A stretch of DNA of 64,000 nucleotides from Pocillopora damicornis (lineage: Eukaryota). This document shows positions 110-28,300 of the stretch, one piece after another. The notes under the pieces were generated by a model. It was not told the origin of the DNA. It saw nothing but the letters and a program-made list of their open reading frames with translations, and made no database searches. The stretch covers positions 124,001 through 188,000 of the forward strand of contig NW_020845673.1 of NCBI RefSeq assembly GCF_003704095.1. Direction: 5' to 3'. Position 1 is the stretch's first letter; every line of letters starts with the position of its first letter. The translations under genes were made by a program, and so were the position numbers.

Positions 110-414
110 ACCAATGCCGCATGCCTCTTGGTGCAGAAGACGGCCGCTTGGTCCCAGGTTCTTTCTCGGCCTCTACTTACTATAATCATTATCTGGCACC
201 ATGGCACGGTCGCTTAAATCACCGCTGGTCATGGAGCGCACGTTACCGCCGGCACGGCCAATGGATGCAGATTTCTTTTGGAGGAAGTGCAACAGTGAAG
301 GGAATCGCGTCACAAGGCAGACAGGACGCTAACCAATGGGTAACGCAGTACACACTTGGTCGCAGTACAGATGGCATGAAATTTTATCCATACCACGAGG
401 GACGAGGAACAATG
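110..414 (+). CDS. FA58C domain A1, long exon
   Basis: AG/GT, 305 nt; DQCRMPLGAED..YYNHYLAPWHGRLNHRWSWS. Confidence 0.9.
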
Positions 415-3400: not shown

Positions 3401-6400
3401 AGTTTTAACCCTTTACGCCCTAACATTAGGATTCATATTCTCCACACTTTCCCTTTACAAGGAAGATTTTTTTGACAACAAGGAGCTTCTTAAATTGGTG
3501 ATAGTTTCCTTTATTTTTATTACTTTTACATTTGATTCAATTGATAATTCATTAATAATTATTATTAATAATTATTAATTATTAATAATTATCATTAATT
3601 AACATTAATACTTTAAGGAGAAGTTAAAAGCTAGTCACTCTTAGGGGTAAAATGACTGAAGAGGAACAAGCTTTTACATTCATTTGCTTGGTTTGTGAAC
3701 CCTAGGTTGAATTGATCGAAATAGCCTTTTGTTCTTGAAATAAAAAACCATGGTTTTGATCTTTCACTACTTTTCACAGTCTCATTAGTGTCTTCAGGTC
3801 TTTGCTAACGTCAGTCATCTTATTGGTCAAATATATTGTTTATAGATGTTTAGTGGCAATAGTGACAGATACCACGTGGTCCTACATCGCTTTGTAAAAC
3901 CATTCAGGGCACGGTATGTACGACTGCATCCGAAATCCTGGTTCCGGTACATATCTTTGAGAATGGAACTGTACGGCTGTAGACACGGTGAGTGTGGCAA
4001 TTACAGAGAGTTCATTCACCTTTTTACACCCTAACATTAGTATGCATATTCTTCATACTGTTTTCTATACATTCTCTAAAGAGTCGACGAGGAGAATTTG
4101 CTTAACAATCAAGAGCTTCTTTACCGTTTTATCGTTTCCTTTACACCCGTTTGAAAGATTTCCCTCTGGCTTAATTATTGCTGTGTTTGACGCCATTTTC
4201 CACTTTAGGTCCTCTGTGTAACCGACCGATGGGAATGCAGAGTGGTCGTATTCACAACAGCAAAATCACTGCTTCGTCTAATTGGGACCCATTCCATGCC
4301 GCGTTTCGCGCCAGATTGCATCATGGTAAAGCTGGACGCTTCATTGGAGCATGGAGTGCGAAAACTAACAATCGTTATCAATTTCTGCAGGTGAATACTA
4401 AAAAAAAATCATTGTCGATAAATGAAAAGCTTGTTGGAAGTATATGATTCATGGTTGAGTCAAGTAAAACGCTATTTTATCCAATGAATGTTATAAATAC
4501 AAACGTAACTAGCCATGAAGATTGTTCGGTGTTAGCACATATCAGGCTCGCTAAATGCTTCCTGACAATTGTTCCGACGAACGTGGAAGGACATTAAATA
4601 TTTCCTTCCTGGCTTTGCACACAATGTTGTTGCACAAACTCGGCCAATCCGTAAGATAGGGACTAAATTCCACTCATCAAATCGACTCACCCCGAATAAG
4701 CCGGTTATTGGTCAGAGTGACCTATGCAAGAGGCTCTTAGATTGATTGAGTTATTGCCTAGCTTAGTGGGCGCTTGGCTAGAAACAGCGTCATTTTTAAA
4801 AGCGCATGGTTTTTCATTTATTTTTTCCCGCTCATACTGGAACATGCGCCCTCCGTACTCAATCGTTTGGCACGCTGCTTAAGAAGTTATTCAGCTGTTG
4901 GATAAATGTTTTTTTTATTTTAAAATAGGTGGATTTTTCAAGAGCTGCTCTCATCGTCAGAGTCGCAACTCAGGGGCGACAGGACTACAGACAGTGGGTC
5001 ACACAATATTATTTGAGATACTCTTTAGACGGAATTCACTTCGTTGACTACAAGCAACGTCACACTAGAAAGGTAGATATTTATAATCAAAGATCGAGCA
5101 ATTTTCAATTGATTGTCGAAAGTAATCCGCAATTGCTTTGGTTTTGCTTAAATTTGTTCTGCGGGTGGTCTGAGAGTTATTGCACGGGAAAATTTAAAAG
5201 AAGACTTGAAGGATTTAAATCCACGATCCACTCGGTATAAAGCTACTTACATGTCTTGTTAAGGTCTGAAGTTTCTAAAGAAATTCTTTACGAATTGCAG
5301 AAGTCGCTCAGGCGTGTTAACACCCATTAAACTGGATCTTAGCCGAGAACGCGCCTAAATTGCCTTCGGGACGACGTTCTTTTAGTATATCTTTAGGCTA
5401 AGCAGTGATGGTGTCCTGTTCCTAAGTGCCTGATGTGTTATGCCCTTTGTTTGTCTTAGTATTTCCCAGGAAATCGCGATCAGAACACGGTTGTATCACA
5501 CGCGCTGGTACCCAATATAAGAACGAGGATTATCCGTATTGTGCCCTGGCATTGGTATGGGCACATCTCCATGCGAGCAGAGTTTTATGGATGCCTTACA
5601 GGTTTGTTATGAATATGAAAGCGATTTTCGCGGTAATAAACACTTTCAAGCAGTAGAGAAAATCACACAGAGTGTATAACTGAGTATAGAAGTCTGGCTA
5701 CAAGACTGACTTGCTCAGCTACCGAAGCTTATCCCAGTTTCTGTGGCATAGAGTGACTTAGCCTGCAGAATAGGCAGACACGTGCGAGAGGCGTCCGTGA
5801 AAGGCGAGTCACACGCGAGATAGAGAACTTTGATTCTCGTATACGACTCTTTTCCGCACTCACATCTCCTGCTTGTCTAAGCTCTCTCATAAACAATGAA
5901 ATGACTCCCGCAGGCCACGTTACCCATAAGTATTACGTTTATTTTTCTTTACATGTCATTGACACTCATTATGTAACTCGGTCGATCGAGGCTCTGTGGA
6001 ACGCAATGGCCTGATCAGGGTTTGCACTGATTAAGACATGTAGTTGAGACCAAAATTATTTTGCGTGCGGTTTTAAATTAAATCATAAACGCTACTGTCA
6101 CTAGGTCTTGTGAAACAAGACTCACTATGGAGTTCTGAAGCTTTGCAGAAAATTATAGTTTTTGTAAAAGAACAGTCATTCACAGATTACCAATATCGAG
6201 AGACTCATTTTAACTGCATATTTCTTTCGTTCTCTTAAAGATCATTGTAAGATGCCTCTTGGTGTGGAAGACTATCGTATCCCTTCTGGCTCACTTCAAG
6301 CATCATCTTCCTGGAACTACAACCATGGTCCAGACCGCGCGCGAATCAACTTTCCTTCGGGACATAGTCGGTCAGGGGCCTGGGTTGCGAGAGGCAGAAA

Positions 6401-9400
6401 CACAAATCAGTGGCTACAGGTGGAACTGGATCGACCGGCCAAAGTTACAGGCGTGGCTACTCAGGGTCGGCATGATGGCCACCAATGGGTTACCAGTTAC
6501 ATTGTGTCTTACAGTTTAGATGGAAAGTCGTTTAAGGCGTATCTTGAATTTGGTAGAACCAAGGTTGGTAATTATTTCTATGTAAAAGTCCTTTCTCGAC
6601 TCTTTTCAAAATCTATCTGGGGAATAAAATGAAATACATTGCGACAACTGAATACCATTCCTACTATAAATTGAAAAAAAATTGAGAATGTCTGTTGTAA
6701 GGTTACAGACGATTCCGGTATTCAGATTTCTCTAGATTTCGTTGTCAGTTTGTTTTCTAGCTTTTTCAAAGTTTATCAGAGTTGAAGAAAGATTAAGAGA
6801 GATTAAGTAAAAATAGCGGAATTGTCTGCCAAGTGGTAAAAACAGTGTCTTCCGATATTTTTTGGTTGACCTTTAAAGTAAGCAGATTCACTACATGACT
6901 TAATGACCTTTAATTATTCTTTTGCTGGAAGTTAATACTGGAATAAGTAATTCCTGCTTTTTGAACTCGCCAGCTGAGCGGTAGGCTATCGCTTAAAACT
7001 AGAAACAGGATTTTAAAACAGATGCGGCATCTTTCAGTGTAAATTTTTATTGGTTCTCAAGTCTTATAGTAGTGTGAGAAAAATGTCACTTTCGAGGATG
7101 TTTTTGCAACTTTCCAAGTTGCAAGTTGTATCCCAGTTGCATATTTCTTCAATTTTTTCGTACATGAAATGTTCTATACACCGATTCGCAGGTATTCAGC
7201 GGAAACTTCGATCGCTACACGATCGTGATACACGAACTTGCTCCTCCGATCAGAGCCAAATTTGTCCGATTTTATCCGAAGTCGTTCCGAGGCGGCATCG
7301 CCATGAGGGTAGAGGTTTTTGGCTGCTATTATGGGGGAGGTAAGGATATCTTTGTGACAGGTGCAGTTATATGAGTATACGAGGGAACATATTTGGTTGG
7401 TTCTTGAGTTAAAAGAAATTGGGTTTGGCTATCATCATAAAATTTTGCCTGTTTTTAGTGTACAAGAGTTTCAATAAGCTCCTTCTCTAGGCAAGCTTTG
7501 TCTATCTTCCTGTTACATCTCTGCATGAGTATTGTGGTCAAGATTTTGGTCAAAAGCCCAGGGATTGATTGACAAGCTGTAAACTAAAGCGTTCGAAGTA
7601 ACCATTGCAAAGCAGAGGCTCGATTTCGATAGCGAACGTTAAGAATTTCTTTTTCCTCTTCTGTGGACATGCCATCGGATGAAAAACATTGTCTTTCACT
7701 ACAGAAGATTCGTCGTCGTTGATTTGTTTATCAGCTCAATTAATTTAATGGTTTATTTTCCCATTTGTCAACAGCTCGTTTCTGTACCAATCCAGTCGGA
7801 ATGCAAAATGGGAAGATCAAAAATGGCCAAATCACCGCCTCCTCAATGTACAATCAGTTCCACGCACCGTGGCTTGCCAGGCTCCACCGCGCCAAACATG
7901 GCCGCTACATTGGCTCTTGGTCATCAAGACACAACAATCACAATCAGTGGCTACAAGTTGACCTGGGAAAGACCATGAAAGTGACTGGTATCAATACTCA
8001 GGGACGACAGGACGCCCATCAGTGGGTGACTGCTTATTATGTGTTCTACAGCTTGGATGGAATGTACTTTGCTAAAGTGAAGCACTGGTGGAATTATGTG
8101 AAGGTTGGTGACTGACGTTGTACAGCTCTGTTTAGTTCTGTTTTAGCTCACCGCACAGGGAAATCTACTTGGAGGTAAATGTTTGTGCGCGTTTACATGA
8201 ATAAAGACGTTTAGGCGAGTCAAACCCTCGTCGAGAGCCGAGTTGAATGGTTGAAATTTTTTTGTTCCTTTTTCTTATGAAAAAATTGCCATACGTTGCC
8301 CACTGACTCATGTCGGTTTAAAAACTGACCACTTGTTTTTGCAATTTTCTTCCAATTCTAGGTTTTTGATTATCATTAGCGCTTTTTGCGATAATTCAAT
8401 CCGAAATCGTGTGAGGAGCCTTCAGTGAAGCTTGGTCAAAATGTTATCAAGGTTTATGATTTGGTCAGCTTTCCATATATATTTTTCCATGGGCGATAGA
8501 CTTCACTTCACTTCAAAGTTTAACCCGCAAATCCTAACATCAGTATGCATATTCTCCATACATTTCCTAAGGTGCTGAAAAGGAGAATTTTCTTAACAAT
8601 CCAGAGCTTCTGTAGTCTTTGATCATTTCCTTTATTCTTATAACCTTTATATGTGATTCAGGGTTGATACTGTAATGAGAAGTTAGAAACAATGCAAGTC
8701 ACTCTAATGGACCAAAGAGTTAAATTGGCACACACAAAAATTGTCCAAATATCTTGAAAGAACTAGAAAGGATTCATCAGTGGTAACAAAACACCTACGC
8801 ACTCCATGCCGAAGTAGACAAGGGGAAGACCTACCTGATTATAATGACATAACCTTCATGGATTTTTTTAATGTTTCTTTCGCAGCAATTCCCAGGCAAC
8901 TACGACAGATATTCTCTACGTACGCACGCTTTCAGGCCAGCTATTTACACCCGCTTCGTTCGTATCCAACCACGAGGCTGGAGATCACATATTTCCATGA
9001 GGATGGAGCTGTACGGATGTCCGTGGAGTAAGTGGGGCTCTCTACACTTTAAAGAACTATAGGAAGCTATTTTCGAGAACCCTCCCTTAAAACCTCTTTC
9101 AATCCAGCATAACTAGAACCGTAGACGGAAAGCTGAATGAAAAGTCAAACCTTAACTTAACTTGTGGTCGGTGTAAGTGTAGACATAACTTCGCTTTCTG
9201 TGGAGATTTTTTGACGATGATTTCTCCTTCCAAGCGTTTCTAAGCTAAAAAGAAGTATTAAACTTCTCTTGAGCAATTTTGATAGAATTGTTTTATTTTT
9301 TTTGTTTTGATTCAGTTATACCATCTACAAATAGTTCTCTCAAGCCGCGACACACTTTTTTGCCCACTCTTGCTTTACATCAGTCTCTACTTATTTAATA

Positions 9401-12400
9401 CTTTTTTCCTTGTTTGATGACCAGAAAGACGCTTGTAACATTGATGATCCTAATATTACCCAAGACGCTTTTGCGTAAACCTATTCTATGGAGTCGGCCG
9501 ATCAGAACTGGCTGAACTAGAGTTCAATCTGTCCCAAGCTAGTCACTAATGTTTAACGTATTTCTGTAAATTTTGCTTATGTTTTCTAGGTCATTGTGAT
9601 ATGCCACTCGGTCTCGAAGACGGCCGTGTGCCAGACCAAGTCATGACTGCTTCTTCGTACAACAATATTTACGATGCGCCATGGAACGCCCGTCTCAACA
9701 GGCGGCGTTACAGTCGTTTTGGCGGAGGATGGTCACCGCGTAGAAATGACGGACATAGGTTTCTGCAGGTTGACTTCCAGGCTTTGGCGAAAGTGACACG
9801 TGTCGCTACCCAGGGAATGCAAAATGCCAATTACTGGGTGAAGAAATATTACATTAAATACTCAAGAACTAGAACTGGATTTGCTACATATCGCGAAGGT
9901 AGAACCACAAAGGTATGTTTTACTTACTTATGTGATGTTAAAGCTTCATCTCCAGACTTTGCTCAGATTCTCAGACGGTTCGAGGACGCTCTTTTCAAGG
10001 AGATCACCTTAACACTTCCGACCGATTGAATAGATTCTTCCATTAGCTCAATCGTATCGATCGTTTCATTTGTATTTCCTTTTTTTGTAGATTTTCCGTG
10101 GAAACAATGATAGATACATCACCGTGGAAAATAGGTTTGCCCGGGTTCTCCATGGAAAATACTTCAGAGTTTACCCTGTTTCTTGGTACTCTTGGATTGG
10201 CTTGAGGGTCGAGTTCTATGGATGTGTGTACGGTAAGATTTCACTTGAGTGGCGAAGTTTCTTCATCTCTAAAACTTGAAATTAGAAGTGCCGAGGTAAC
10301 TGTACTCTTACTGAGTTGAATTTCAAATCTGACAGCGCTTGACAGAAGGCAAAAGAGACATCGATGTGATCAACGAAATATCGTACGAAAAGGTAGAGTT
10401 AACTTATTGAAACCCCGAGATCACAAATTTTGCGTGAAGTGTCATTTGAAAGGGCAGACTAAGCTGATTGGAACACTCAACTCAATATCACAATTCAGAA
10501 TCTTTCCGCTTTCCGGATATAATTACACAAATTTTCTCTAATCAATTTCTGTTTCATTAAGAGTGGAAAAGAATATGTGAATATGTGAATGCTGTAGATT
10601 TTGATATCTTATCCCAAATTTAACGAAGTAAGGAAATTTATTTCTTACCTGGTTAATTTGCCCATAAAAACACAAGTGTTGAGAACTTAAGGTAACATTT
10701 TTTATAAAAATTCTTAGTAATACATTAATTTTACCCCTCAATTTACAGGAAAGCGATGTAACCAACCTTTGGGCATGCAAAATGGTCGCATAAAAGCAGC
10801 ACAATTATCCGCCTCCTCCAGTTGGGACGGAAATCACGTGCCTAACAACGGCAGGCTTCATCTCCGCCGCGTTGGCCATCGAGTGGGGGCCTGGTGTGCT
10901 CGACATAACACTCGGTACCAGTGGTTTCAGATCGATTTTTACCGCGCTGTAAGACTGGTAAAAATCGCTACACAAGGAAGACAAGATGCTGCTCAGTGGG
11001 TCACTCAGTATTATCTCAGCTACAGTCAAGATGGCGCACACTTCGCGGAGTTTAAACATAACAGCAACCGGAAAGTAAGTTCGGTTATTTAATTTAGAAG
11101 CAGTATTTTTGTACTACTTTATTGGACCATGTCATTCGCCGTGCAATAAACTTTCGGAAGAAAGTAGAAAAGAATCGTTCTAGCAATTATAAAAGCCTAA
11201 ATCAAGGATAAGTATCATATCTAAATAATTCGCCAATGCGTGCTATTTCTGAACTGTAAACAGAGATTTGTAAGTCACGTTTGCCACTAAGTTTTAGTGC
11301 TAATAGTAGTATATGATTCAAGCGTGGCGCTAACCTGGAGGTTAGGAATTTTTTTAACACTTGATATGCTGCTTTTGCGACGTTGCTTAGTGGGCGATTT
11401 GATTTCATACACTTGCCCTGAAATAGCGCCTAAAGCCATTCTCAGAATAACTCTTTACACTTAAGCATCAGTATCCATTTTCTCCCTACTATGCTCTATA
11501 CATTTCCTAAGGTGCTAACAAGGAGACTTTGTTTAACAATCAAAAGCTTCTTTAGTTGGAGATCATTTCCTGTATTCTCATGACCTTAATGTTTGATTCG
11601 GGAATGACGTTGTAAGGAGAAATCAGATGTTAGTCACTCTTAGCTCTCAAAGGGTTAAAATTTAGGCTTTAGAGAACGAACAGTAAATAACGGTTCGTCT
11701 TTTTTTATTTTCCCAGTACCTCACGGGTAATAGAGACCAAAACAGCGTGGTACAGCATCGTTTATTCCCGCAAATCAGAGCGCGTTTTCTCCGTGTCCAT
11801 CCTTGGGGCTGGTACCGACATATCTCTATGAGAGTGGAGCTGTATGGGTGTTCTACAGGTTTGATGTCGTCCTTATAGAAATCAAAGCAAAATTACGATT
11901 CCTGGGTGTTACATGGTTCATCCTGTTCTACCTAGTATAGTACACGCAAAGTGCTTTAAGTAGGACGCGCCTTATTCAGCGCTAATATTGCCTTCTATCT
12001 ACCCCTGCCTACCCCTCCCCTAACCCAAAATAACTCTGACTTGTTATCAGTTGACTGTGGTCGGGGTAGGGAAGGGGTAAGTATAGATTTGCTCAGATAC
12101 TGACTCCGATTCTACGATTCATTGGAAATACGTGTTGAAATAAGACATTTTTTCCTAAACATGTATGCTTGATCTTTTTTCCTTTTTTTAAATTTTGGTA
12201 TACTGTATTGTGGGGAAGAATCAAGGAAAATTTAAAAAGGTCCGAAAAAAACCTCTATTTCTAGGAAATAGCCTTATTAATGAACCAATACCTGACGTTA
12301 ATGGGCTCAAATATTTTTTTTTACCTACCCTTGCCCCTTGTCATCAGTATATTCTATTTGTCGTTTGTAACTTTACGATTTCGTCCTTTTCATTTTCTGT

Positions 12401-13313
12401 TTATTATTTTTATCTTTTGAATAAAAGGACGTTGCTCTCTTCCTCTTGGTTTGGAAGACAAACGTATCACTAATGGCCTTTTATCGGCGTCTACATATTA
12501 CAATCATCATCTGTCCCCTTGGCATGGCCGGTTGAACCACCGCTGGTCATGGAGCGCAAGGACCAACAACCATAACCAGTGGTTCCAAGTGAGTTTCGTG
12601 GGTGTGGTCAGGGCGACAGGGATTGGTACCCAGGGAAGACAGGATGCTAATCAATGGGTGACAAAGTATATTGTGTCCTACAGTCCTGATTCAACCCACT
12701 TCCGCTTTTACTCTGAAGGGAGGGGAACCAAGGTAAGAGTGTGCCTTGTGTGCCACTTTTTTGTTCTAACCAGATTCTTACGTCGTCTTTAATTTATCAC
12801 TGAAAAGTCGCACGATAACATGGAGTCTTTTTGTTAAACGGTTAAACCAGAGTGTAAGGCTTGATGAGTAAGGCAATCTTGCTAATCACCTTAATCACCG
12901 TGATTACTCATCAATCACCTCTTTGAAATTTTACTATTCTAAATCCTGGCAGGTTTTCACCGGAAACAGCAACAGGCACCCGATTGTGTACCATGATTTT
13001 GTTAAACAGTTCAAAGCCGTGTATGTTCGTATTTATCCAAGAAGTTGGTACGGCTGGATGTCTATGAGGACCGAGATATACGGCTGTTATGGTATGTTAG
13101 AGTTTGCGCTTCGAGGGTGTTTGAGAAACTGAGGGACGAAAATGTTTCATTATTAGTCCGGGACTCACCGATTGATTGATTGGTTTATTGAATGACAGAC
13201 AGACAGACAAGAAGACAGACTAATATGTAGATTGGTGATTGATTGATGGACTGATTGGTTGACTGGTTGATGGACTGATTGACTGATTGACTGGTTGATT
13301 GACAGACAGATTA

Positions 13314-13351
<38 letters not shown>

Positions 13352-16300
13352 GGATTGATGGAAGAAACTTTGTTCACCAGCGTTATACCGATCAATAAAG
13401 TTACAATCAGTCTAACTTTTCATTTTTGGCCTATGAATGTTTAGATAAAAATTTTATCGTTCCTTGTTCGCTTTTCCACATTTCAGCAGTTGCTGATTAC
13501 CTTGAGGTTATGATCGAAGTAGTATTGATACTTTAGAGTGATGAAGTATGTACCGATCCTATTTCAATATTTTCAAGAGTTTTGTCACTCACCGATAGTA
13601 TTTTATGAAAATTTTTTCCTCTTTATCAATAAAAACGTGAAAATATACAATATGAGATTTGAGTCAATAAAACTCTTGCTATGAAATGAAAAGTTTTCTA
13701 TCAAGATGTTGACATTCTATAAGTTAATTGTGGCAAAATTTCGATGTTTTGCAGTATTTTCATGCAGCAGCCCACTGGTTAGAAAGCTACCGAATTCCAA
13801 GATCACCGCGTCTTCGGAATACAACAAATACCACGCGCCCCGGCTTGTTAGATTGGGTCAAGTGCGGCATAGAGGTTACGTGGGAGCCTGGAGCTCAAGA
13901 CACAACAATCACAACCAATGGATCAAGTTTGACTTCTCTCGACCAATGAAAATCACTAAAGTGGACACTCAAGGTCGACAGGACTCTAACCAGTGGGTAA
14001 CGCGTTATCTGCTTTCCTCCAGCTTGGATGGAATTCACTGGCAGATTCATAGGATTAACAGTCAGGACAAGGTAGGACACCTACGATTAAGGAGTCATTT
14101 GTGAAGTTATCGCATGCAATTTGAGAATGCTCACTGTGACCGTCACGCAACATGCTCTCTCAGGGAAGAAAGTGCGTTGCGCGACAATGGCAAATAGAGG
14201 CTACTAAGGCGACTATACCCTACTTTAACAGACGTAAATACGACTCGTTACCTTCAAAGTAAAGTAGATAGCCATAGCTTTAAATACAACTGACCAACAA
14301 ACTGAATTTTTTAAGCTCCATCACGGGCCTCAGCGCGGAAGACATGTGTCGCCTGACGAGCTCGAGTTTAAGGCGTTTCCTCGTCGTGCCATTTTGACAT
14401 AACGCAAGTTGCATGAAAACCTAAAAGAAACGCCTTTGAACCTTAGCGTCCCCCAAGAATTTGATGCTCGGTTTTCTTGATTGTTGTGATACTAACGCCT
14501 CTCTACTAACTTTTCGCTAAACGTTATCTTCAAATTTTCTCTTAAAGTACTTTCAAGGAAACCGCGATCGTAACAGCGTAGTCACGCAAGCTATAAATCC
14601 ACCTATCTTGGCGCGTTACATTCGTTTACACCCGAAGGGATGGAGTGGCCACATTTCTATGAGAGTCGAGTTCTATGGATGTCGCGCAGGTAGGGACCAA
14701 TTTCTATGTAAATACATGATGCGCAATAATTCTTCAATAATAATAGTAGTACTATGAAAAATAATTCATAGAATTTTATTGAGCAGTTATCAATATAAAA
14801 TTTTCAATTTTGCATTGACGGCCAGGGTCTGTTTTTGTGTCTTTTTATGAACGTGGTCTGTTTTGTATTATTATTGGGTCTCTGTACTGTGTTCATATTT
14901 TTGAGGTAAATGGAGGTTTTTATTCATTTTTTGTCTATGTACTGTATTTTGACTATATTATTAACATTGCAATGATTGTTTCAGATCCGTGCGATGTTCC
15001 GTTGGGAATGGAAGACGGTCGAGTCACCAAGGGAATGCTCACGGCATCCTCCATGTATAACCATTACTACGGTCCCTGGAGTGCCAGGCTTCAGGCTAGG
15101 AACTATGGCTCACTCCGGGGAGGCTGGATCGCAAAGTACCGCAACACTCATCAGTGGCTGCAGATTGACCTAGGAATCTTATCCAGAGTAAAGAGAATCG
15201 CTACTCAGGGTCGGTACGACGCTAATCAGTGGGTGAAGTCTTATACAGTGTCTTACAGCAATAACGGAGCGAGGTTTTATCCTGTCAAACAGGGAAGGAA
15301 TGTCAAGGTACTAGATTTCAATATCTGATTTGATTCAAATCTTGCTTATTCGTACTTTAAAGGACCTGCTTACTTATGTGCTTCGTTTCTTTCCTTTTCT
15401 TTTCAAGGTATTCCAAGGCAACATCGAAAGAAATCATGTTGTCTTCCATAAATTCAGGCCTTCATTGAAAACGCGTTACGTTCGCGTACATCCCAAGTCA
15501 TGGTACAGCTACATTTCTATGAGAGTAGAGTTATATGGTTGTAGGCTCGGTAAGTGTGCTCCCTCAAACCCTTATAACGTTTTCCTTGATTAGGGCAAAC
15601 TCAAACTAAAGCTTTCCACTCCGCCGGTCACTTATGTCAGAAATGCATGCAATAACGAAAATGACAGATTTGACGAAATTTCACCAAACCCGTGGATTTC
15701 ATGGATTTGACAATTTTGGTGAATTTTAGTCAAATTCGTCAAAGCGAAATCAGCGGGGTGGTTTTGACGATTTTGACGAATTTTCGCCATTTTCGTTACA
15801 GCATGCATTTCTGGACGTATCTCCCGCAGGCAGAACAACGTTAGTTTTAACTACTGCTTTGTCTACAGCACTTAATTCTAATGATATTCTTTGGAATTTT
15901 CGGTCGTGATTTTCTCGATTGGTTACCTTTTTACACTTTTTGAGTGTAATTATCTCTGTGTTTATTTTTATCCTTCTGAACTTAATTTTGTTTGCTTTGA
16001 TTTCGTAAAATACGTTTCTGCCTTTCTCCTCTCTGCAACCGGTGTACCTAGACATAGCTGTAATGACTTTCTCTTATTGCTCTGCTCGCAGGCCCACTAT
16101 GCAACCGACCAATGGGATTACAGTCTGGCCGCATTAAAAATCACATGATGTCAGCCTCATCTTATTGGGATGTGAACCACGCTGCTCACTTTGGTCGGCT
16201 TCACCACCGCCGCCGCGGTCGTTTCATCGGGGCTTGGTCCTCAAAATACAACAATCGGTACCAGTTCCTGCAGGTCGACTTTGGCGGAGCGTCTAAAATA

Positions 16301-19300
16301 ATTCGAATTGCGACCCAGGGACGACATGACGCAAACCAGTGGGTGACGCAATACTATGTATCACACAGTTTAACCCGAATCCACTTCTCAGAGTATAAAG
16401 AACGAAACTCCCGAAAGGTAATAATTTATTTAATGATTATTAAGATTATCATAGACCAGACATCAAATAAAATATGATATATTATCTTGTTTATACCAGG
16501 TTTATATTTTTCTTTTTCTTTTTCTTCAATTAAGCCCTCGTTTTTTCTTCACTAACGGAGAAGAGTCCCCATGGATTTGTTGAACAAATCGTTATTATTA
16601 GTATCATTATTTTTCATTTTGTTAGTATTATCATTCTTACTATTGTTTTTCTCATAAGCAACCAAAATATTTGATTTTTGTTTGTTTGTTGTCTCGTTCC
16701 AGTATTTCTCTGGTAATCACGACCGGAACACAGTAAGGTTACACTCATTTATTCCTGCCATTCGAGGACGGTACATCCGGGTACATCCTTGGGGATGGCA
16801 CGCTCATGTCTCTATGAGATTAGAATTCTACGGATGTCGCATTGGTAAGAGGGAACACCCCTTTATTCTGCTCACTCGTTCGAAAACTGAGAGGAACGAG
16901 GACCTGGTGAATGCGTTATAAGCCTGATGGCAAGACAAACTCGAAATGTCATAGAAAAGTGTCGGGTTTTACATTAGAGCTTCCAGGACATGACTTTCTC
17001 CTTTAGGACCTCTATGCATTTATTTTAAGAGGACATTTTAAGTGTAATTCAGAAAGTAAATCATTAGGTCTTTTTTTGTGGCTAAACGTTAAATTTGTAG
17101 GTCGTAATTCGTCAACTAGGACGAACGTAAGACTCTTGAAGAGTCTTGTTTTCTGGAGAGAACATTTTGCTACTTACAGTTGCAAAATTATGACCTACAA
17201 GTTGCTAAAAAGCCTTATTCACATCTGAATGACTTATAAAATTTCCATTTTTTGTTGGTACGCCTTTTAAAACTTATCACTTGAATTTTTTCAAGATCGT
17301 TTCACCATGCCTCTTGGTATGGAAGATCGTCGTATTCTGTCGGGTCATCTTCGGGCCTCGTCGTCTTACAACTACAACCACGGACCTGACCGATCGCGTC
17401 TAAACATCGTCAACGGTCGTGGACGAACAGGAGCCTGGGTCGCCAGGCATCGTAACTATAATCAGTGGCTACAGATTGACCTCAGGGAAATGACTTTTGT
17501 GAAAGGAATCGCTACACAAGGAAGGAGAGAAGCTCATCAATGGGTGACAAAGTATCAGATATCCTATAGTCGATTCGGAGCGCGATTCATCTCTTACGTA
17601 TCTTTCGGGCGCGTTAAGGTAAGGCGAAGAAATTGTACTCTCAGGAAACTTGTTAGAGATTAATTGCAAGATTTCTGTTCTTTATGTTGAGTGCAGGGTT
17701 AAAGACCACTTTCTAAGAGGAGGCGTTCCAAATACTTGTTCCACTCAATGTAAATTTGGGCAGGTTCTACGTTTACCTTTTTTTCTACAGTTTTTTTACA
17801 GCATATAGAGATGATTTCTCTTTTGAAGATAAATTCCAAACTTTATACCCTGTTATTTTCATATTTAGTCACAAACGGCGTAGTTTGATTGCCGCGCAAA
17901 GTTATTCCGAGAGAAGTTCAGTGTACCAACCCTGAACATAATTTAACAAATCTCGCAGCGTTCCCCCTTCATTCAACATTTGCAAAACCAGGTTTTTAAT
18001 TTTCTCGCAAGTAGTGTAACTATAAAGAAGAAGCTACCAACAAACTGTTAAACTTCAGGGGGCCGACTTTGTTATTATCAAACATTTTGTTGGATTTACT
18101 TCGATTTGTTTAAAGCAAACCCATCTGCAATTAAAGATGTAACAAAATTTGTCCCTGTTCCCGTTCTTGCATTTTCGGCTGTAAGTAAAATTTGTCTTTT
18201 ACTCTTATTTTAGATGTTCCGAGGTAACTACGACATTTATCACACAGTGGCCCAGAAGATACTTCCCGCTATCAAAGCACGCTACATCAGGATCCATCCT
18301 AAGGGATGGCGTTCATACATCGCCATGAGGGTCGAACTTTATGGAGGACGATTAAGAGGTGATTACATGACTAATATCATGGGTCAGATGTTTAAATATT
18401 TGGTCCATCAAGAGTTAAGCATTCAATACTTCATTTACTTTGTATACAGAAAACTTCTGCGATGCGCCAGTAGGTCTTCAATCCGGTCGTATAAAAAACA
18501 GCCAAATCACAGCTTCCTCTCAGTGGAATAAGCATCACGCGCCCTGGCTTGCTCGTCTGCACCGAGCCAAAAGGGGGCCTTACATTGGATCCTGGTCTTC
18601 CCGACATAACAACCACAATCAGTGGCTACAAATCGACTTTAGAAGGGCAATGAAGATCACTGGTATTGCCACTCAAGGTCGACAGGACGCTGTCCAATGG
18701 GTGACCGCGTACTATATCTACTATGGTTACGATGGTGTGTACTTTTCTCAAGTGAAATATTGGTGGAGTTATGCACCAAGGGTAAGATGGTTTTTAACTA
18801 AAGATCGTTAGGAAGTATGACATGATGGCAAATTTAGTTGCATTCTGGCGCGAAGGAGCACATCGATTGAAATTCAAGTGATGAGTTTGGGAACTCATCG
18901 GTAACAATACAGGACTACCGATTCCTTTCCATTCTAATTTTGTATCCTTTTGCACTGCCTAAGAAAGTTTTACCTGATTTAAGCAAGTGACAGAAGTCGC
19001 CTTAGGTTAGTCTCCCACTTATTAGGTTACTGAAGTTACTGATAATTTAGATGAGGTAACTTTGTTGTGGGCTTTGCAGTATTAATAAATTTTCGGCTAG
19101 CAAGTGCTCAATATTTCTTCATGAAAAATTTTGCCGACATCATGGCGTTTTAGAGTGGAAGAAAGATGAGTACAGCAAATAAAGTGAGGAAAGACGACTG
19201 GCAAAAAGAATGTAGAAGGAAGGGGGAGGGGGAATCAAGAGTGGATCCGTGAACGATCGTTTTTTTGTAAGGCAAGCTCGCTCTACCTGATGAAATGCTC

Positions 19301-22300
19301 GAGGTGATTCATGTATTTCCATGCTAATACATTATTGCTTCTGTTGTGTTTGTCCTTAAACAGACTTTCCAAGGCAACCGAGATCAGCTGTCTGTACAAA
19401 CACACCCTATAAACCCAGCTATTTACGGCAGATACGTGCGAATCATACCACGAGGCTGGAGATCACATATTTCAATGAGGCTAGAGCTTTATGGAAGTCC
19501 TTGGAGTAAGTTTTTCAAAAACGCCATTTTTGTGTTATTTTTGTGTTTGTTATTTCTGTTGTCTGGAGTAAACCAATAATCACATACAAGCTCCAGGGAG
19601 AAGTTGTTGTCAGTTTAACCCTCTACTCCCTAACATCAGTATCAATCTTCTCCCTACTCTTCTCTATACATTCCCTTGGTATTGATACGGAGAATTCGTT
19701 TCACAATCAAGCTTCTAAGGTTGGCGATCATTTCCTCAATTCTCATGATCTTAATTAATGATTCAGCAGTATCACTGTAAGGAGAACTTAGAATCTGGTC
19801 ACTAAAGGGTTAAGAGAGAAATTCAATATTACACGCATCGCAAATCTCTACATCTACATTAATACGTTGAACGACACTAAATGATTCTTAGGTTTTCCTG
19901 TTTTGTGTTAAATCCATTTGAACCTCACCTCTTCACCTTCTTGTGCTCGTTCAATTATCAGTTAAATATTACGTTTGTCATTTAAAACTTTCCCCTTCCC
20001 TTTTTGATTTTTATCGTCTAAACCCACGCGTGACACTCGAAAAAAGAGCCAAGTCGACGAAGCCCTACGTGTACTTAATTTTTTTCTGTTGTAGATCGTT
20101 GTGATATGCCACTTGGTATCGAAGATAAGCGCGTCCACGACAAAATGATGCGCGCTTCTTCGCACGCCAGCTACTACTGTAGACCAGGAAGTGGACGGCT
20201 GAACGGCCGCCGATATGGTCGATACGGAGGGGCCTGGTGCGCAAAGAGACGAGACAGGCGCCAGTGGCTTCAGGTGGATTTTGGTGCATATACCAGAGTG
20301 TCTCGTATTGCTACGCAAGGAAGACAGAACTCCGCTCAATGGGTGAAATCGTACTCTCTTTCATACAGCAAGAATGGATACGCATATGTACCTTACAGAG
20401 TGGGAGGTCGAACAAAGGTTAGTGAAAGAATATTCAAAAGAATAACATCCACTACCCACTCAAGACTTAGGCTTCTAGCTCTTCTGTCTTATGTGCCCAC
20501 AGCTCTTGCCCAGGAGCCGGTTGTTCAAGGGTGGTGCTAGTGCAAATGTAGGATTAACTTTTAAACTCGGTTTTGACTTCTCTTGTTTAGCATCGCACAT
20601 TACCGCCAACATTTAGTGAGGTCTCTCGGTGTTTTGAATAATTCATCTCAGAATAACGCATAGACCCCAGTGGACTGGAAATACAGTCTTCTTTTGAGCA
20701 AGGAAACTTTGTAGCGCTCTTTCAATTTTTTCTCCCGATCTCTTAGTCTAACACACACTTTTCATTGGGACACTTAGGTTTTTAAACCTGATATTAATGA
20801 TCTATTTTACTTTCAGATATTCCTTGGAAACTATGATCAGCACGTGATTGTACGCCACAGATTACGTCACCATATCACAGCGCGCTATTTTAGATTCCAT
20901 CCCATTACGTGGTACAACTGGATCTCAATGAGAGTTGAACTGTACGGTTGTGTCGTTGGTGAGTTTCCCTCGCCCTTAATTAAGTTTCTTATTGCGATTT
21001 TTTTCAGAACGTTTAAAGCGCGTTTCGATCAAGTGAAATAAAATTATGACCAAAGAAATCACAATGGCCGGCCAAAACAAGGGCTAAATTTACGATCTCT
21101 AACCGGAGAAGTAAGGTAAATTTAGGCACCAACTTGAATTTCTGAGTGTCTATGCGGAATTTGAAAAAGTTCGGCCAGGTTCTAAACAAGTACTCTCAGT
21201 CTAATGTCCATGGCACCAGCCACTGCCTCCTGGCTTTCTTACTTCACTGTCACGTCAAAAGAGTAACATCCTTCTGAACATGGAACAACTCCCACTTTTT
21301 ATGGAAGAATGAAAACCATATCGTATTAATTGTCGCATGCGCTCTTTGGTTTATTCGTTTTAGGTGCACGATGCAACAGGCCTTTAGGAATGCAAAATGG
21401 CCGCATACGTGCAAACCAACTTACTGCTTCTTCCAGCTGGGACAAGAACCACGCACCCAGCTACGGCAGGCTACATTTCCGCCGCGCTGGTCATCGAGTG
21501 GGGGCCTGGTGCTCGCGGCATAACAACCGTCTCCAGTGGTTTCAGGTTTACTTTGGTCGCCCCACCCGGGTGGTGAAGTTTGCTACACAAGGACGACAGG
21601 ATGCCCGTCAATGGGTGACTCAGTATTATTTGACATTTAGTCAGGATGGAGTGCATTCTGCTGAATACAAAGAAAACAGTAATCGAAAGGTACATCATAA
21701 TTGCTCGTTGAAATTTTTTAAAAGATCATTTTTTCCAAACAGTGGACATATGTGGAAACTGAAATAGAAGCAAATAGAGATGTAAGCTTTAAGAACATTC
21801 CTCACTAAGTATTTCTTCTTTACGTACCTTGGTTGCTTTTCCGCCAGACATGTGTTCAAGGAAAAGAAAAATTGATTATCTAAAAAAGAGGACAGAGAGA
21901 TAGCTAGATTTTTGGAAACCAGTAAAATATGTGCCCCATTTGAGGATCGTACCCACGACCTTTAAATTTCTTCAACTTTTTCACTTTTGCTTGAGACTGA
22001 TGCGCTGCTGCCTATTGTGCTAACAAGGCACCTTGGATATCGACAAACATGCATGAATATTTATTTGGTGTGCTTCTAATTAAAAGACAGGGCAAGGGAT
22101 ATAAAACCAATGGCAATATTTAATTTTTCTATTGCAGTACTTCCAAGGAAACAGAGATCAAAACAGTGTTGTCCAACATCGCCTCTTTCCTAATATTAAA
22201 GCGCAATATATTGAGATCCATCCATGGGGTTGGTATGGACATATCTCCATGAGGGTCGAATTCTATGGCTGTGCTGAAGGTAATCGAGAAACCATTTAAC

Positions 22301-25300
22301 CCTTTCAATTCCAAAACCTCAATATAAGTTCTCCTTATTGCTTGCCATACATTTCATACTCTCTCTCTCTTTATCTTCTGTTTGGTGGTGTATTGATATC
22401 GTAAGGAGAAATTACGTATTGGTTTTCCTGAAGTGAAAGTGTTGGATTGTAAAGCCGAGGACGATCTATCATTGAGTGTTTGGCGAGGGACAGTTTCTAG
22501 TCTTCTCTCTTTCGAAAAAAAAAACAAAAACAAACAATTACATGGAGCAAAATTTCTTTGTTAACACAAGCGTTCTGCTCATATTTTTTATACTTGTAAG
22601 AACCTTCTTTTCGTCCAGTGTCAAGCCTTATCAAGAGTCATTAAAAGCTCTTAAATACATGGCTTCTCTCTCTCTCGTCTGGGTACAGAACGAAAGAATC
22701 TAACCCCTCTTCCTCTAACACTTTCAGATCGCTTTGTTATGCCACTTGGTTTGGAAGATAAGCGTATTACAGATGGTTCTCTCACCGCATCCACTTACTA
22801 CAATCATCACCTCTCTCCATGGCATGGCCGACTGAACAGCCGCTGGTCATGGAGCGTGCGCCACAACCGCAGAGGGGAATGGTTCCAAGTGAACTTTGTT
22901 GAGCTGATGCGCATAAAAGGCGTGGCTACCCAGGGAAGGCAGGACGCTTCCCAGTGGGTGAGAAGCTATACAATTATGTACAGCGTGGACGGAATGAATT
23001 TCGTGTCTTACAAGGAAGGACGTACCACCAAGGTAAATGTCTAGTGTGATTTTCAAAGGTAGATGTATTTGGTTCACAAGTGAAACCGTATGACATTGAA
23101 AAGTGCGCAAGTGTTATTCGTTTTATGTTTTCGCGGGATGTCAGTTTCTAACAAATATGGAAGTATTCCGCTTCCATTAAGAATCAGCGAAAAACTCAAT
23201 TGAATGAAACTGTTCGTTATTTCAATACACTTTGCGTCAACTTTTAAGTAATGCGATAATCTCAAGTTCCCGGCTGAGAAATGCAACTATACGAGTAAAT
23301 TCTGGTTTTGAGTATAAACTAGTATTTTTTTATGCTACTAACGAGAATAACAGAAACGTCTTTTTTTTGGGTTACGACGCTTTAATTGGAATGCGCAGAT
23401 GCCCGCTGAGGGACGTGGATCCCTGGCCTTCCGGTTAATTAGAGAATACTCCTCTAGTTTAATTGGGGAACTCAGCCAAGACAACCCTCCGTCATTCATA
23501 TGTAATAGTTTTTCCCCTGTTGTGTTTTGTGGCTGTTTTAAAAGATTCATGGTTTTATCTTAGGTCTTCAGTGGAAACACAAACCGCCATTCCATCGTGT
23601 ATCACCAGTTCCTCAGGCCCTTTACGGCCATAAACGTTCGTTTTTATCCGAAAACCTGGTACGGTTGGATATCTATGAGAGCTGAAGTTTATGGCGCTTC
23701 AGGTATGCCTTAACTTTCTATGAAAAATGTCTAAGCGATGAAATTACGACAAAAAGTAAATAAGAAATTTATTGACAAAGAAATTTAGTACTGTGCAAAT
23801 GTAATGCGAACGATTATCGTAGAATATTGCGCTTTGCTCTGCCGAGATATCGCCGATATTTTGATGATTTATCGTACACTTTAACGCCACGTGTGAACGA
23901 TAAATCGACGAGATATGGGGGCTTTTCTACGATCTTTCGTTTCTTATTTGTCATTAACCGAAAAAAATTGTTGTTCACTGTTTTTATGTCCGATTATACA
24001 GCCTCTCCGTGTAACAAACCTCTGGGATTACAAAACCACCGTCTTCCCAACAGCCGTATTACAGCATCATCGGAATGGAATCAGTTCCACGCAGCCAGAC
24101 TTGGGAGACTGGGTCAAGTCAAACGTGGCAAATATGTAGGGGCCTGGTGCACACGGTACAATAATCATCTACAATGGTTCAAGGTGGACTTTGGTCGACC
24201 AATGAAAATCACTAAAGTAGCCACTCAAGGCCGACAGGATACCAACCAATGGGTGACTTCTTTCTATCTGTCGTCAAGTCAGGATAACGTGCACTGGGAG
24301 GCATTCAAGTTTAGAAGTGTATTCAAGGTAAAAACATATGAAAATACCGATAAAATCAATCCTTATAATCAGGTGTTAGATTTACAAATTTTCTGCCCGA
24401 ACTATCTAAATAAACAATTATAGCAAAGCTGACATTTGCAGCTGTACTTGTGAACGCTGTTGTGTAGAAGCTAAAAATCTCATTGCCAACCATTTTAGAT
24501 TTAAATGTGCCCTTTTGTTTGTATTCTTGGAGAAGAAATTCATTGAATGATTTTCTGAGTGAGTTCTGCTCTACCTTTCAGTAAAAACTTTCCAGGAATC
24601 TCGCTGCTTTAATACTTAGTGGTTTGTCAAATTTTGCGAATGAAAATAAGGATAAAGTAGGAATAAGTTTTTCAGACTCTTATGCTCAGAAACTGTGATT
24701 CTAAAACGTATCAGCAGGATTGCGGGACACTGGCTTTCTAGTTTTGAGCCAATACCCCTAACATTTTTGCGAGGCTCGTGATTATTATTTCGCTCTTTCA
24801 GCTTTTTCAAGCCAATCGTGATCAAAACAGCATCGCTAAAAATGCCATAAACCCACCAATCTTGGCCAGATATGTCAAGCTTAATCCACGTGGCTGGTAC
24901 AGACACATTTCAATGAGAATCGAGTACTATGGTTGTGTCGCTGGTAAGTTTCTTTCACCTCCACCTTTCACTTTCGACCAGAATCCAATAGTACCCTGTT
25001 TCCTGTCTCCGTTGGTGATGTTTATCGTCGAGTCTTTATTTAACCCTTTCAATTCCATGCGTGACGAAAAGGTAACTTCTTCTTTTCTACGGCAATGAAT
25101 TGTCTAGAAGACAAGTGACGGAGGATAAAATCTCATTATCATCAAAATCTCCAAAGGAAAAAAATATAACGAATGTATTTTTCCACTGAAATCTTGAGAT
25201 TTAAGGGACCAACGTTAGACCGAAAGGATCATAGATAGTCAAGCGTGTCGAAAATTAACACGCTTTGAATGGAAAACTTGAAATTTTCAACAAGCAAAAG

Positions 25301-28300
25301 TTGTGAATCGGACCATCAGGAATGTTAAACTTTTCAATTTTACTGTCACAATCTAGATCGTTGCGATGTTCCCCTTGGAGTCCGGGACGGTCGCGTCACA
25401 CGCGCAATGTTCACCGCCTCATCCATGTACAACCACTACTACGGTCCTTGGAGCGCAAGACTTCAAGCTCAGAATCATGGTGTAACCAGAGGAGGCTGGG
25501 TCGCTAAGTACCGCAACACTCGTCAATGGCTACAGATTGACTTAGGAACTACTTCCAGAGTAAAGAGGATAGCTACCCAAGGCCGGTATGATGCCAACCA
25601 GTGGGTGAAGTCTTACACTGTATCGTATAGCAACAACGGTGTGAGGTTCTATCCTTACAGACACGGAAGGAGAGTAAAGGTTAGTTATATAGAATTGAAC
25701 GTGTCATACCTCACTTTGGCCAGTTTTATTCCACGAAGAAGCAATATTTATTTAACATGCGAGCAAATCGTAGATAAAGCGTAAATTATCAACGCAAGGA
25801 ACAAAGTGCTAATGCAATTTCCAGATGAAAAATTTGACAAGATTCAAAGCTTTTGGAAATCTCTGTAATGAAATGCACTTGGGTATTCAATACATTTCAA
25901 TTAATTTACGTTGTGTAGTTTAAGGAAAGAGCTTTAAGCTACCCATACAAGGTAGGAGTAACATAAAGGCTTCTTTTTTGCCCTTTTACTTTTACTGATA
26001 CTGTTGCTCTGACTGCTACGATGTCGCATGGTCGTCAACTGTATATCTTAATTGAAGACGTACTTCAGTTTGCGAATTGTGTAGTCCTTAGATGTCTCGA
26101 GACACGTTAGAGGCCTACGTACGGGGGAAAATCATTACAGTCAGAATTACATGAGAAACCGAAGCGAGGAGCAGATGTCTCAGATGTGACTTAAGTATTA
26201 ATTATCAGGCACAGGCGATAAAGTCTCTCTCTTCATTTGCTACAAATGTTATAATAACTAGCCAATCTAAAGACACATTCTCATAGCACATTTATTTTGT
26301 AGATATTCCAAGGCAACACCGAGAGATATTATGTAGTGTACCACAGGTTTCGCCCGTCCATCAAGGCCCGCTATATACGTATTCACCCACGGACTTGGTA
26401 CAGCTGGATCTCTATGAGGGTTGAACTTTACGGCTGTCGACTGGGTACGTGTAGTCCTAGTGTATGAAGAATCCGGGGCCAAATTTCTCAGAATGCTGAC
26501 AGGATATGCAATCGAAAGTTCGCCTTGGTGCTGACTGAATTATAATTTGGAGGTCACGGATCTTCGACTCTGCAACAAGCCTTGTTTTGTTGTAGCTCCG
26601 AGTTCATCTCCTCAACTGCGCTCAGTAAATTTCAACTGGTTTGCTAAATATCAATCAGACTTGAAACAATCTACTTTGTATTGTTTCTATCTGCTGATTT
26701 ACTTACCGCGTCCCCAGTTACTCAGAAGTCTAAAAAACATTGATATCTTATCAACTTAATTTTATCGCCAGCTGTTATCTGGGAAAATATCGCAGACCTC
26801 TGAGAAATGATAACTTAATCTACATGCGCTTAAAACTCGCAAAAATCATTCAAAATTTGATCAAGTTCGCCGGTTTGATAATCAGCCTTTTTTAAGAGTT
26901 ACCAGCATAGCATTGACCGCAAAATTTTAGTAGACTACTATGTCGTTATTCCAAAAGCTTTTTAGCCCAGATTATAGGTGACAAGAATCAGGAAACTAAT
27001 TAAATATGGGCTAATATGTATGGATGTGACGAGAAATTCTTGCAAATAATTTTTCTTAAAATGTGTGGTGATTGTGAGGAAAGTCGATGTTTTGATCCCA
27101 AAAATAAATAGGCCAAGCGTCGTAGATAGTTATACAGTATTTTTTTTCCTCTTAGCCTCTTTATTTTGTCTTTATTAGGTGTCCTCTGCAACCGACCAAT
27201 GGGAATGCAGACAGGGCGCATCAAGAACTACCAAATCACGGCGGCATCCATGTGGGATACATTCCATGGTCCTTATCTGGCAAGACTCCATCGGCCGCGT
27301 CGGGGACGATACATAGGGGCCTGGTCAGCAAAATACAATAACCATTACCAGTGGCTGCAAGTGGACTTTAAAAGAGCAGCGAAGATCATTAAGATATCTA
27401 CACAGGGACGGCAGGATACTTACCAGTGGGTTACACAGTATTACGTCACCAGGAGTCTCGACAGAGTTCACTTTATGCCATATATGGAAAGGAATAGCAT
27501 TAAGGTATGAGGCAGAGCACGAGTCTAGAACTCATTGGTGAAAATCTTTGAACAGGGTGCTGGTTGTCTGTGTTTCAGCACTAACTAAACTAGGACACGG
27601 TTGTGAGTTTGTTGGCCTCAAACTCCCGTAGGTGATGTGTCCAGTTAATAAGGCGCCCGTCACTATGGTCACTTGATGGGACAGCTAAATGTCCTAAGAC
27701 GAGTAAGCCAACAAATTCCAGATCCTCCAACAGGGAATCAATTGGTGCGATCGAACCTTCGTTATCTTGCAGGATAAACAATGTTGCCCTTAACATGAAG
27801 GGAGGATATCGTCACGATAGCAGTTTTATTGTCCCCCAGCCCCCTTCATTTTCCTTTAAGAAAAGGCGCAGTTGCACTCAATACCAATATTGTAAACTTT
27901 TTTGCCCACAATGGTCTCCGTGAAACTTCTCGATATACATATATCATGTGTGGGTCGCATAATCACACTCTTCTGAGAGTCTAAGGGCCTGTCTCCCTCC
28001 TACCATGGTTACGGCCATGTTCTCCTGGCAGCCGTAATACGACGGTTTGTTATGCAAAAAGCACCCAGCGGCACAAGAACATCTCACTGAGACTATCTAC
28101 GAGTATTTCAGGAGTAAAATTCAGTTAAAATCTTACTAATAATATATATTCTAATATATATGTTCTTTTATCTGTTGCAGTACTTCACGGGAAACCGTGA
28201 CCAAAATACTGTTGTCACCAACTCCTTTGTTCCTATACTGCGTTGTCGTTACATCCGGGTCCGTCCCAGAGGATGGTACAAACACATATCCATGAGAGTA

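Follow-up and report, generated by a model that had tools for sequence, protein, structure and literature searches.

In retinoschisin (RS1), eight identical discoidin (FA58C) subunits are joined tail to head by disulfides between C223 and C59 on the inner side of a ring (passages of PMC4728063), which measures 14 nm across, carries its spikes on the rim and pairs back to back with a second ring (passages of PMC4728063, PMC5418834 and PMC6400569), with E72, N104 and T185 given as contact residues in the relevant section of PMC5418834. Elsewhere, the C1 and C2 domains of factor V lie edge to edge as a membrane platform (section of PMC9630041), neuropilin and DDR1 are membrane receptors with two such domains each, sea-urchin Nectin is a secreted protein with tandem FA58C domains, and a mix of EGF, VWD and FA58C domains recurs in marine adhesives of the Sfp1 type (excerpts of PMC10057474). 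Here we examine a 64,000-nucleotide stretch of the Pocillopora damicornis genome (contig C2308:124001-188000, hereafter the window), whose positions 12428-22279 hold exactly eight FA58C domains, D9 to D16, of a giant gene. A preliminary description had proposed that these eight form a single-chain analogue of the RS1 octamer, an interpretation which is partly supported by the present analysis.

We read this segment as a block of eight domains within a giant coral gene that encodes about 75 discoidin domains of two alternating types. The product of this gene would be a secreted, semi-rigid filament of domain pairs with spikes that probably bind anionic glycans or membranes multivalently, and we put the probability of this reading at roughly 0.55. 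The block encodes 1237 aa in classes A to H, within the 1237-1239 aa typical of a unit; its 193 Lys/Arg outnumber its 63 Asp/Glu, 178 residues are aromatic, and it is organized as follows:

12428..13091 (exons 12428-12732 and 12953-13091), + strand: D9, class A, odd type, from the exon model and spliced RNA contigs
13755..14689 (exons 13755-14071 and 14548-14689), + strand: D10, class B, even type, from the exon model and the D9-D10-D11 RNA contig
14985..15549 (exons 14985-15307 and 15408-15549), + strand: D11, class C, odd type, from the exon model and an RNA joint
16092..16844 (exons 16092-16417 and 16703-16844), + strand: D12, class D, even type, from the exon model
17296..18358 (exons 17296-17618 and 18214-18358), + strand: D13, class E, odd type, from the exon model; both terminal Cys lost
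18450..19505 (exons 18450-18781 and 19364-19505), + strand: D14, class F, even type, from the exon model and the D14-D15 RNA contig; C-terminal Cys lost
20095..20958 (exons 20095-20417 and 20817-20958), + strand: D15, class G, odd type, from the exon model
21364..22279 (exons 21364-21689 and 22138-22279), + strand: D16, class H, even type, from the exon model

According to the exon model, the whole window lies within a single gene, rich in introns and read from the + strand, and covers its middle part; FA58C domains have two exons each, or three in a few cases. The model comprises 62 domains (D0-D62 minus D55, which is interrupted by an assembly gap), with AG/GT at every modelled splice end, an open frame across D0-D54 and D56-D62, and a single stop-free frame through 55 consecutive domains. 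The cores of P0001 (D32-D44) and P0006 (D19-D23), two protein database entries under the name Pocillopora damicornis, are letter-for-letter identical to this model, and Pfam recognizes the FA58C family (PF00754, E 4.5e-136) in five stretches of P0006. Predicted exons are also joined in RNA contigs, one of 1342 nt over D9-D10-D11 and another over D14-D15, while a further contig spans the 6.1-kb intron of D24, past the end of the P0006 model.

Along this array, the period of eight noted previously is well beyond chance, as mean identity reaches 68.0% at lag 8 and the best of 5000 domain-order shuffles gives 51.3%. The array also has a period of two, stricter than that of eight and absent from the preliminary description: identity is 40-41% at odd lags and 48-49% at even lags (68, 65 and 64% at lags 8, 16 and 24), and the difference between lag 2 and lag 1 exceeds that of all 5000 shuffles. 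A quick tree search (7 of 59 branches starred; the careful search is unfinished) groups domains by class and places its deepest fork between A/C/E/G and B/D/F/H (Shimodaira-Hasegawa-like approximate likelihood ratio test 93, midpoint root). Overall, all domains but D58 and D61 (60 of 62) fall in the class expected from their position, with class identity decaying toward both array ends. An intermediate period of four was considered and set aside as weak (49% vs. 48% at lag 2, with the D-H pairing alone standing out). On sequence grounds, then, the basic unit is a domain pair in which two domain types alternate.

This alternation is most marked at the linker pole, where alignment column 13 in the N-terminal arm is Asp in 30/30 odd and 0/32 even domains, and where acidic residues mark the odd domains (columns 3, 12 and 13) and basic ones the even domains (columns 7, 17 and 67). 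In contrast, the 21 class-specific columns (of 156) fall more often in spikes (11/30) than at the pole (4/45; Fisher p 0.007, columns not independent). Period 8 probably reflects four diverged pairs duplicated as a block, with the marks of each position mostly in the spikes; in the tree, adjacent units are sisters and end units the most diverged, both of which are expected because block duplication predicts them.

Linker lengths follow the same two-type pattern. The preliminary description had reported 4-7 residues between the terminal Cys of neighbouring domains, which we confirm for all 60 junctions examined, with 4 residues in 35, 5 in 17, 6 in five and 7 in three (counted between C-terminal and next N-terminal Cys positions). 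Of its two examples, GCRLGPLC does lie inside the block (D11-D12), whereas GCPADRC belongs to the D2-D3 junction (2431/2966) and falls outside. Every one of the 30 even-to-odd linkers has exactly 4 residues, whereas odd-to-even linkers (n = 30) range from 4 to 7, and the seven within D9-D16 measure 4, 4, 5, 4, 6, 4 and 5 residues. The alternating pole residues and the invariant linkers therefore answer, at period 2, the check suggested in that description, as position-conserved residues outside the spikes could form interfaces; at period 8 the markers are mostly in spikes. Shortness by itself is not special, as the factor V C1-C2 linker is also 4 residues from Cys to Cys, and other coral tandem-FA58C proteins (P0056, P0057, P0212, P0214), with 7-13 domains, have linkers of 2-5. 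These other arrays differ from the present one in having one domain type, mostly near-neutral charge and varying domain number, with no period in the two that were tested, whereas net charge here is +9 to +22 per domain (mean 16.6).

The terminal Cys pair is complete in 57/62 domains of the periodic array, and two of the five domains lacking it fall in D9-D16, where three of seven junctions lack one Cys (D13 having lost both and D14 the C-terminal one). The D13 losses are shared with the Montipora orthologue, and that of D14 with the Acropora and Montipora orthologues. Linkers contain no extra Cys; beyond the terminal columns, other Cys sit inside domains of some classes. In class G (e.g., window 20095-20417), two further Cys, at columns 31 and 51 of the alignment and present in four domains each, could pair in a disulfide peculiar to that class and close to the spikes; lone Cys at column 51 (classes B and H) and column 134 (class D) could cross-link chains.

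An AlphaFold2 model of five domains, C to G (51 alignment rows), reached a predicted local distance difference test (pLDDT) of 91.7 and a predicted template modelling score (pTM) of 0.79, and one of seven domains, E-F-G-H-A-B-C (23 rows), a pLDDT of 85.2 and a pTM of 0.62, where independent domains would be expected to give a pTM of about 0.24-0.34. Predicted single domains match factor V/VIII C2 at Z 27-29 and a root-mean-square deviation (rmsd) of ~1 Å. Junction geometry was then read from the rmsd of domain pairs (~300 residues) to solved tandems, in tables holding one best pair per chain. The even-to-odd junctions lie 6.8-7.9 Å from neuropilin b1b2 (DE, HA, BC), 6.0-7.1 Å from DDR1 (HA, FG) and 14-15 Å from factor VIII C1-C2 (DE, FG), whereas the odd-to-even junctions lie 4.7-10.7 Å from factor V/VIII chains (CD, EF) and 15-17.5 Å from neuropilin (AB, EF).

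Both models thus agree in predicting two alternating junction geometries. The odd-to-even junction is predicted to be roughly like factor V C1-C2, edge to edge, with 4-7 residues and more mobile, so that every second junction would be roughly side by side, since C1 and C2 lie edge to edge in factor V. The even-to-odd junction, always of 4 residues, is predicted to be turned, with neuropilin b1b2 or DDR1 as the nearest solved geometry (6-8 Å, not a close fit). We had considered the 4-residue junctions as the factor V-like pairs and rejected this, exactly these being 14-15 Å from C1-C2. Factor V and VIII have two such domains only, and no solved structure with more than two discoidin domains packed in one chain appears among the matches listed; a search of the ESM Atlas gave F5/8 clusters alone.

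These predictions support one part of the preliminary description, namely that the domains, rather than being loose beads, would radiate from a spine to which each is attached by one pole, with their packing defined (pTM 0.79 and 0.62 vs. ~0.3). A flexible or pairwise-rigid string of beads, on which period 8 would be a duplication relic without geometric meaning, agrees with the variable odd-to-even linkers (4-7 residues, often with Gly), the pLDDT below 50 of the E-F linker, the differing E-F rmsd to the same factor VIII chain (5k8d; 9.0 vs. 7.0 Å between models) and the loss of the disulfide in 5/62 domains. We nevertheless consider it unlikely, as pTM values are well above those of independent domains, and the invariant 4-residue linker and complementary pole charges are kept along the array and across species.

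How far, then, does the likeness to RS1 extend? In both, domains of discoidin fold are linked tail to head through termini that lie at a single pole, the spikes stay free at the opposite side, and a scaffold role outside the cell would be common to the two (passages of PMC4728063, PMC5418834 and PMC6400569); the analogy is fair because RS1 subunits are also linked tail to head. A literal single-chain RS1 ring would place eight equivalent domains side by side per ring, with rings stacked back to back. It gains some credit from RS1 itself, whose subunits are linked tail to head along the inner side of the ring with their spikes facing outward (passages of PMC4728063 and PMC6400569), and from the odd-to-even junctions, predicted roughly edge to edge. 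However, RS1 consists of eight one-domain subunits with a central Rs1 domain, closed by C59-C223, whereas the coral protein is one strongly cationic chain of ~75 domains, with an open frame over 55 consecutive domains and RNA contigs joining successive ones. It has neither an N-terminal Rs1 domain nor flanking extra Cys corresponding to C59 and C223. Moreover, the eight junctions of such a ring would all have to be alike, whereas the sequence and the two models point to two alternating kinds, so that an RS1-type ring is unsupported. Among solved structures ranked by sequence match, RS1 also comes close to last (E 6e-24, vs. 9e-52 for factor V, the best), and a continuous parallel chain alone could hardly yield antiparallel back-to-back rings. 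We therefore regard a literal ring, with period 8 equal to one ring, as very improbable: domain types and junctions alternate, the period-8 markers sit in spikes, and block duplication explains the period.

A looser geometric meaning, in which four pairs make one helical turn (~90 degrees a pair) and like domains i and i+8 stack, is also doubtful. In its favour, the predicted packing is defined, stony-coral fragments with a clean gene model show no domain gain or loss, a 4-residue linker (reach ~23 Å) is long enough for the inner chord of a ring of eight (15-23 Å at radius 20-30 Å), and the array of 63 domains is one short of 8 x 8. On the other hand, position-specific residues are mostly in spikes, the error implied by pTM rises from ~5.6 Å (5 domains) to 9.6 Å (7), a charge of about +16 per domain disfavours stacking unless a polyanion bridges the domains, class identity decays at both array ends (D58 and D61 being off class), and period 8 follows from block duplication alone. 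We grant no better odds to the more ambitious version, a titin-scale discoidin giant of corals and anemones in which four pairs per turn would align eight cationic tips, as a four-fold counterpart of the RS1 ring acting as a ruler or scaffold.

Conservation across corals brings in another possible meaning of the period. In Porites, 29 domains follow an unbroken A-H order, and 27 of 28 scored segments match the Pocillopora domain at the same position best (72-90%), above sister units. Fragments from Acropora, Montipora and Orbicella show the same behaviour and linker lengths, two of them with a G domain at the D55 gap, and the stony-coral fragments with a clean gene model have neither gained nor lost a domain. 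The units must thus be older than the split of these coral lineages, because same-position matches exceed sister-unit matches; this split dates back hundreds of millions of years. Among anemones, an Exaiptasia protein has the N-terminus and four domains in even-odd order with linkers of 4, 5 and 4 residues, and classes B, C, D, E, G and H are recognizable in Nematostella fragments, although the old gene models of this species run from H straight to C and from D straight to G, perhaps through faulty prediction or a true loss of pairs. Titin and nebulin carry super-repeats that match a periodic partner, and the eight-domain super-repeat could likewise serve as a ruler for such a partner, whatever its own twist. 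The eight distinct spike sets in fixed order, one-to-one across corals, and the classes recognizable in anemones would suit a ruler; the H-C and D-G joins of the Nematostella models would not, and no periodic partner is known, which makes this an improbable reading. Three further anemone candidates were considered: Nematostella NvCoag-like 3/6, which lie beside annexins, were dropped as orthologues as there is no annexin match on the Pocillopora contig; Exaiptasia AIPGENE8891, which is upregulated in the pedal disc, disagrees with P0018 in length and coverage; and Exaiptasia AIPGENE25564 (4262 aa, 94% under factor VIII hits, pedal-disc log2FC -3.0) is a candidate for an orthologous piece.

Beyond the block, the gene extends on both sides and ~52 kb past the window end. 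Upstream of the window lie D0 and an N-terminal domain without a Pfam family, shared with an Exaiptasia protein that begins, as judged by eye, with a hydrophobic signal-like segment; the product is likely secreted. The remaining parts of the gene are:

110..11858, + strand: D1-D8, the A-H unit before D9-D16, from the exon model
22728..64000, + strand: D17-D43, from the exon model and RNA joints
beyond the window, in order: D44-D62, a VWD domain with a GDPH motif, an EGF domain, 12 FA58C domains lacking Cys, a Pro-rich stretch and a VWA domain

The GDPH motif lies at about contig position 217080, the EGF and VWA exons were also identified, and Pfam finds VWD in orthologues too. One Acropora gene model bridges the periodic array (63 domains) to the C-terminal tail. 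By inspection, none of the 12 C-terminal FA58C domains has a terminal Cys pair; period 2 continues in their first-exon motifs, and their counterparts in the Acropora orthologue carry class letters without A-H order. We estimate one gene with ~75 FA58C domains and 12,500-13,000 aa, with VWD, EGF and VWA, which would be one transcript judging from overlaps between exons, proteins and RNA rather than from an end-to-end match. Databases hold this giant protein solely as fragments, and no description of it or of its gene ids was found in literature other than subscription journals and the supplements on bioRxiv; pieces of it may appear in supplementary files of papers on coral proteomes or single cells.

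Several smaller features accompany the gene. In a few domains the first exon is split by an additional intron, at differing sites (window 4209-5072, plus D51, D53, D60 and D62), gained or lost later than the block duplications. At the start of D10 (window 13765-13800), three residues are missing in frame from the conserved PLG-x-Q arm (PLVRKLP), and RNA contigs over this exon show no gap there. The intron between D9 and D10 contains a TGAT microsatellite of 31 copies (window 13236-13359), and several introns hold a short interspersed repeat (window about 11490-11650, 19600-19800, 22400, 28790-28930 and 34940-35020) with very high RNA-contig depth, which looks like a high-copy non-autonomous element. 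Two open reading frames in the long D24 intron, at first taken as retroelements, are instead intronless rhodopsin-family G-protein-coupled receptor genes nested antisense (- strand, window 32670-33839 and 35420-36598), both with RNA contigs. Upstream of the gene (loci L001-L004) are exons that, judging by their translations, look like a dynein heavy chain (+) and a glycosyltransferase-like gene (-). Elsewhere in the genome, many more FA58C exon clusters occur (contigs C2019, C847, C4228, C3136, C698, C2136 and C4317), and 150 scored matches of 502 candidates indicate a large tandem-discoidin gene family.

As for function, the secreted filament of pairs might work as follows. The spine would be locked by the acidic and basic patches that alternate at the linker pole, and the four diverged pairs, once block-duplicated, would persist as eight distinct binding tips recurring in turn. 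The semi-rigid chain of pairs would then present dozens of basic, aromatic tips, which by analogy may bind polyanions at high avidity (sulfated glycans of mucus, the surfaces of microbes or prey, anionic membranes), a step suggested by discoidin biology and by the domain mix of marine adhesives (excerpts of PMC10057474). The end with GDPH-VWD, EGF and VWA would anchor or polymerise the chain in mucus, adhesive or matrix. With Sfp1- and hemocytin-type proteins the coral gene shares GDPH-VWD plus EGF and FA58C, a role as glue being conjectural, and Pfam lists no C8/TIL modules after VWD for P0002 and P0216 (both partial models). Nectin, although also secreted and tandem, differs in having six domains, ~10 residues between domain matches, a slightly negative charge and no alternation or super-repeat.

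Several points weigh against this reading. All geometry is predicted, with no control array folded, and AlphaFold may over-rate repeats; the models represent sister units D19-23 and D37-43 rather than D9-16, and their alignments took in unrelated arrays, with just 5 well-aligned rows for domain E in the seven-domain model, in which the six-residue E-F linker falls below pLDDT 50. Furthermore, pTM drops with length at the rising implied error given above, the rmsd tables cover 7/8 junction types (G-H is absent), and no pair fits a solved tandem closely (4.7 Å at best). Spike and pole regions were assigned by us from homology and recall, on columns that are not independent, and between Pocillopora and Porites orthologues the spikes (0.77-0.86) are slightly above the pole loops (0.74-0.79), yet not above the N-arm (0.82). 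Finally, the signal-peptide exon of the gene was not identified in the Pocillopora genome, and no ligand, tissue, cell type or proteomic record could be tied to the gene from passages and supplement rows of PMC12549020 and PMC6626399 or from PMC13581030, where the terms sought do not occur.

The gene nonetheless encodes a very large, conserved and transcribed coral protein, present in current annotation as anonymous pieces and set apart from other coral discoidin arrays by its two-level repeat (pair, then eight) and its charge of about +16 per domain, and it provides a specific alternating geometry, as a prediction, for discoidin domains in one chain. Should one turn prove to comprise four pairs, the gene would offer a rare example of quaternary-like symmetry written into a sequence super-repeat. 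If the protein is a filament of mucus, adhesive or matrix, it would bear on how corals bind microbes, prey and substrate.

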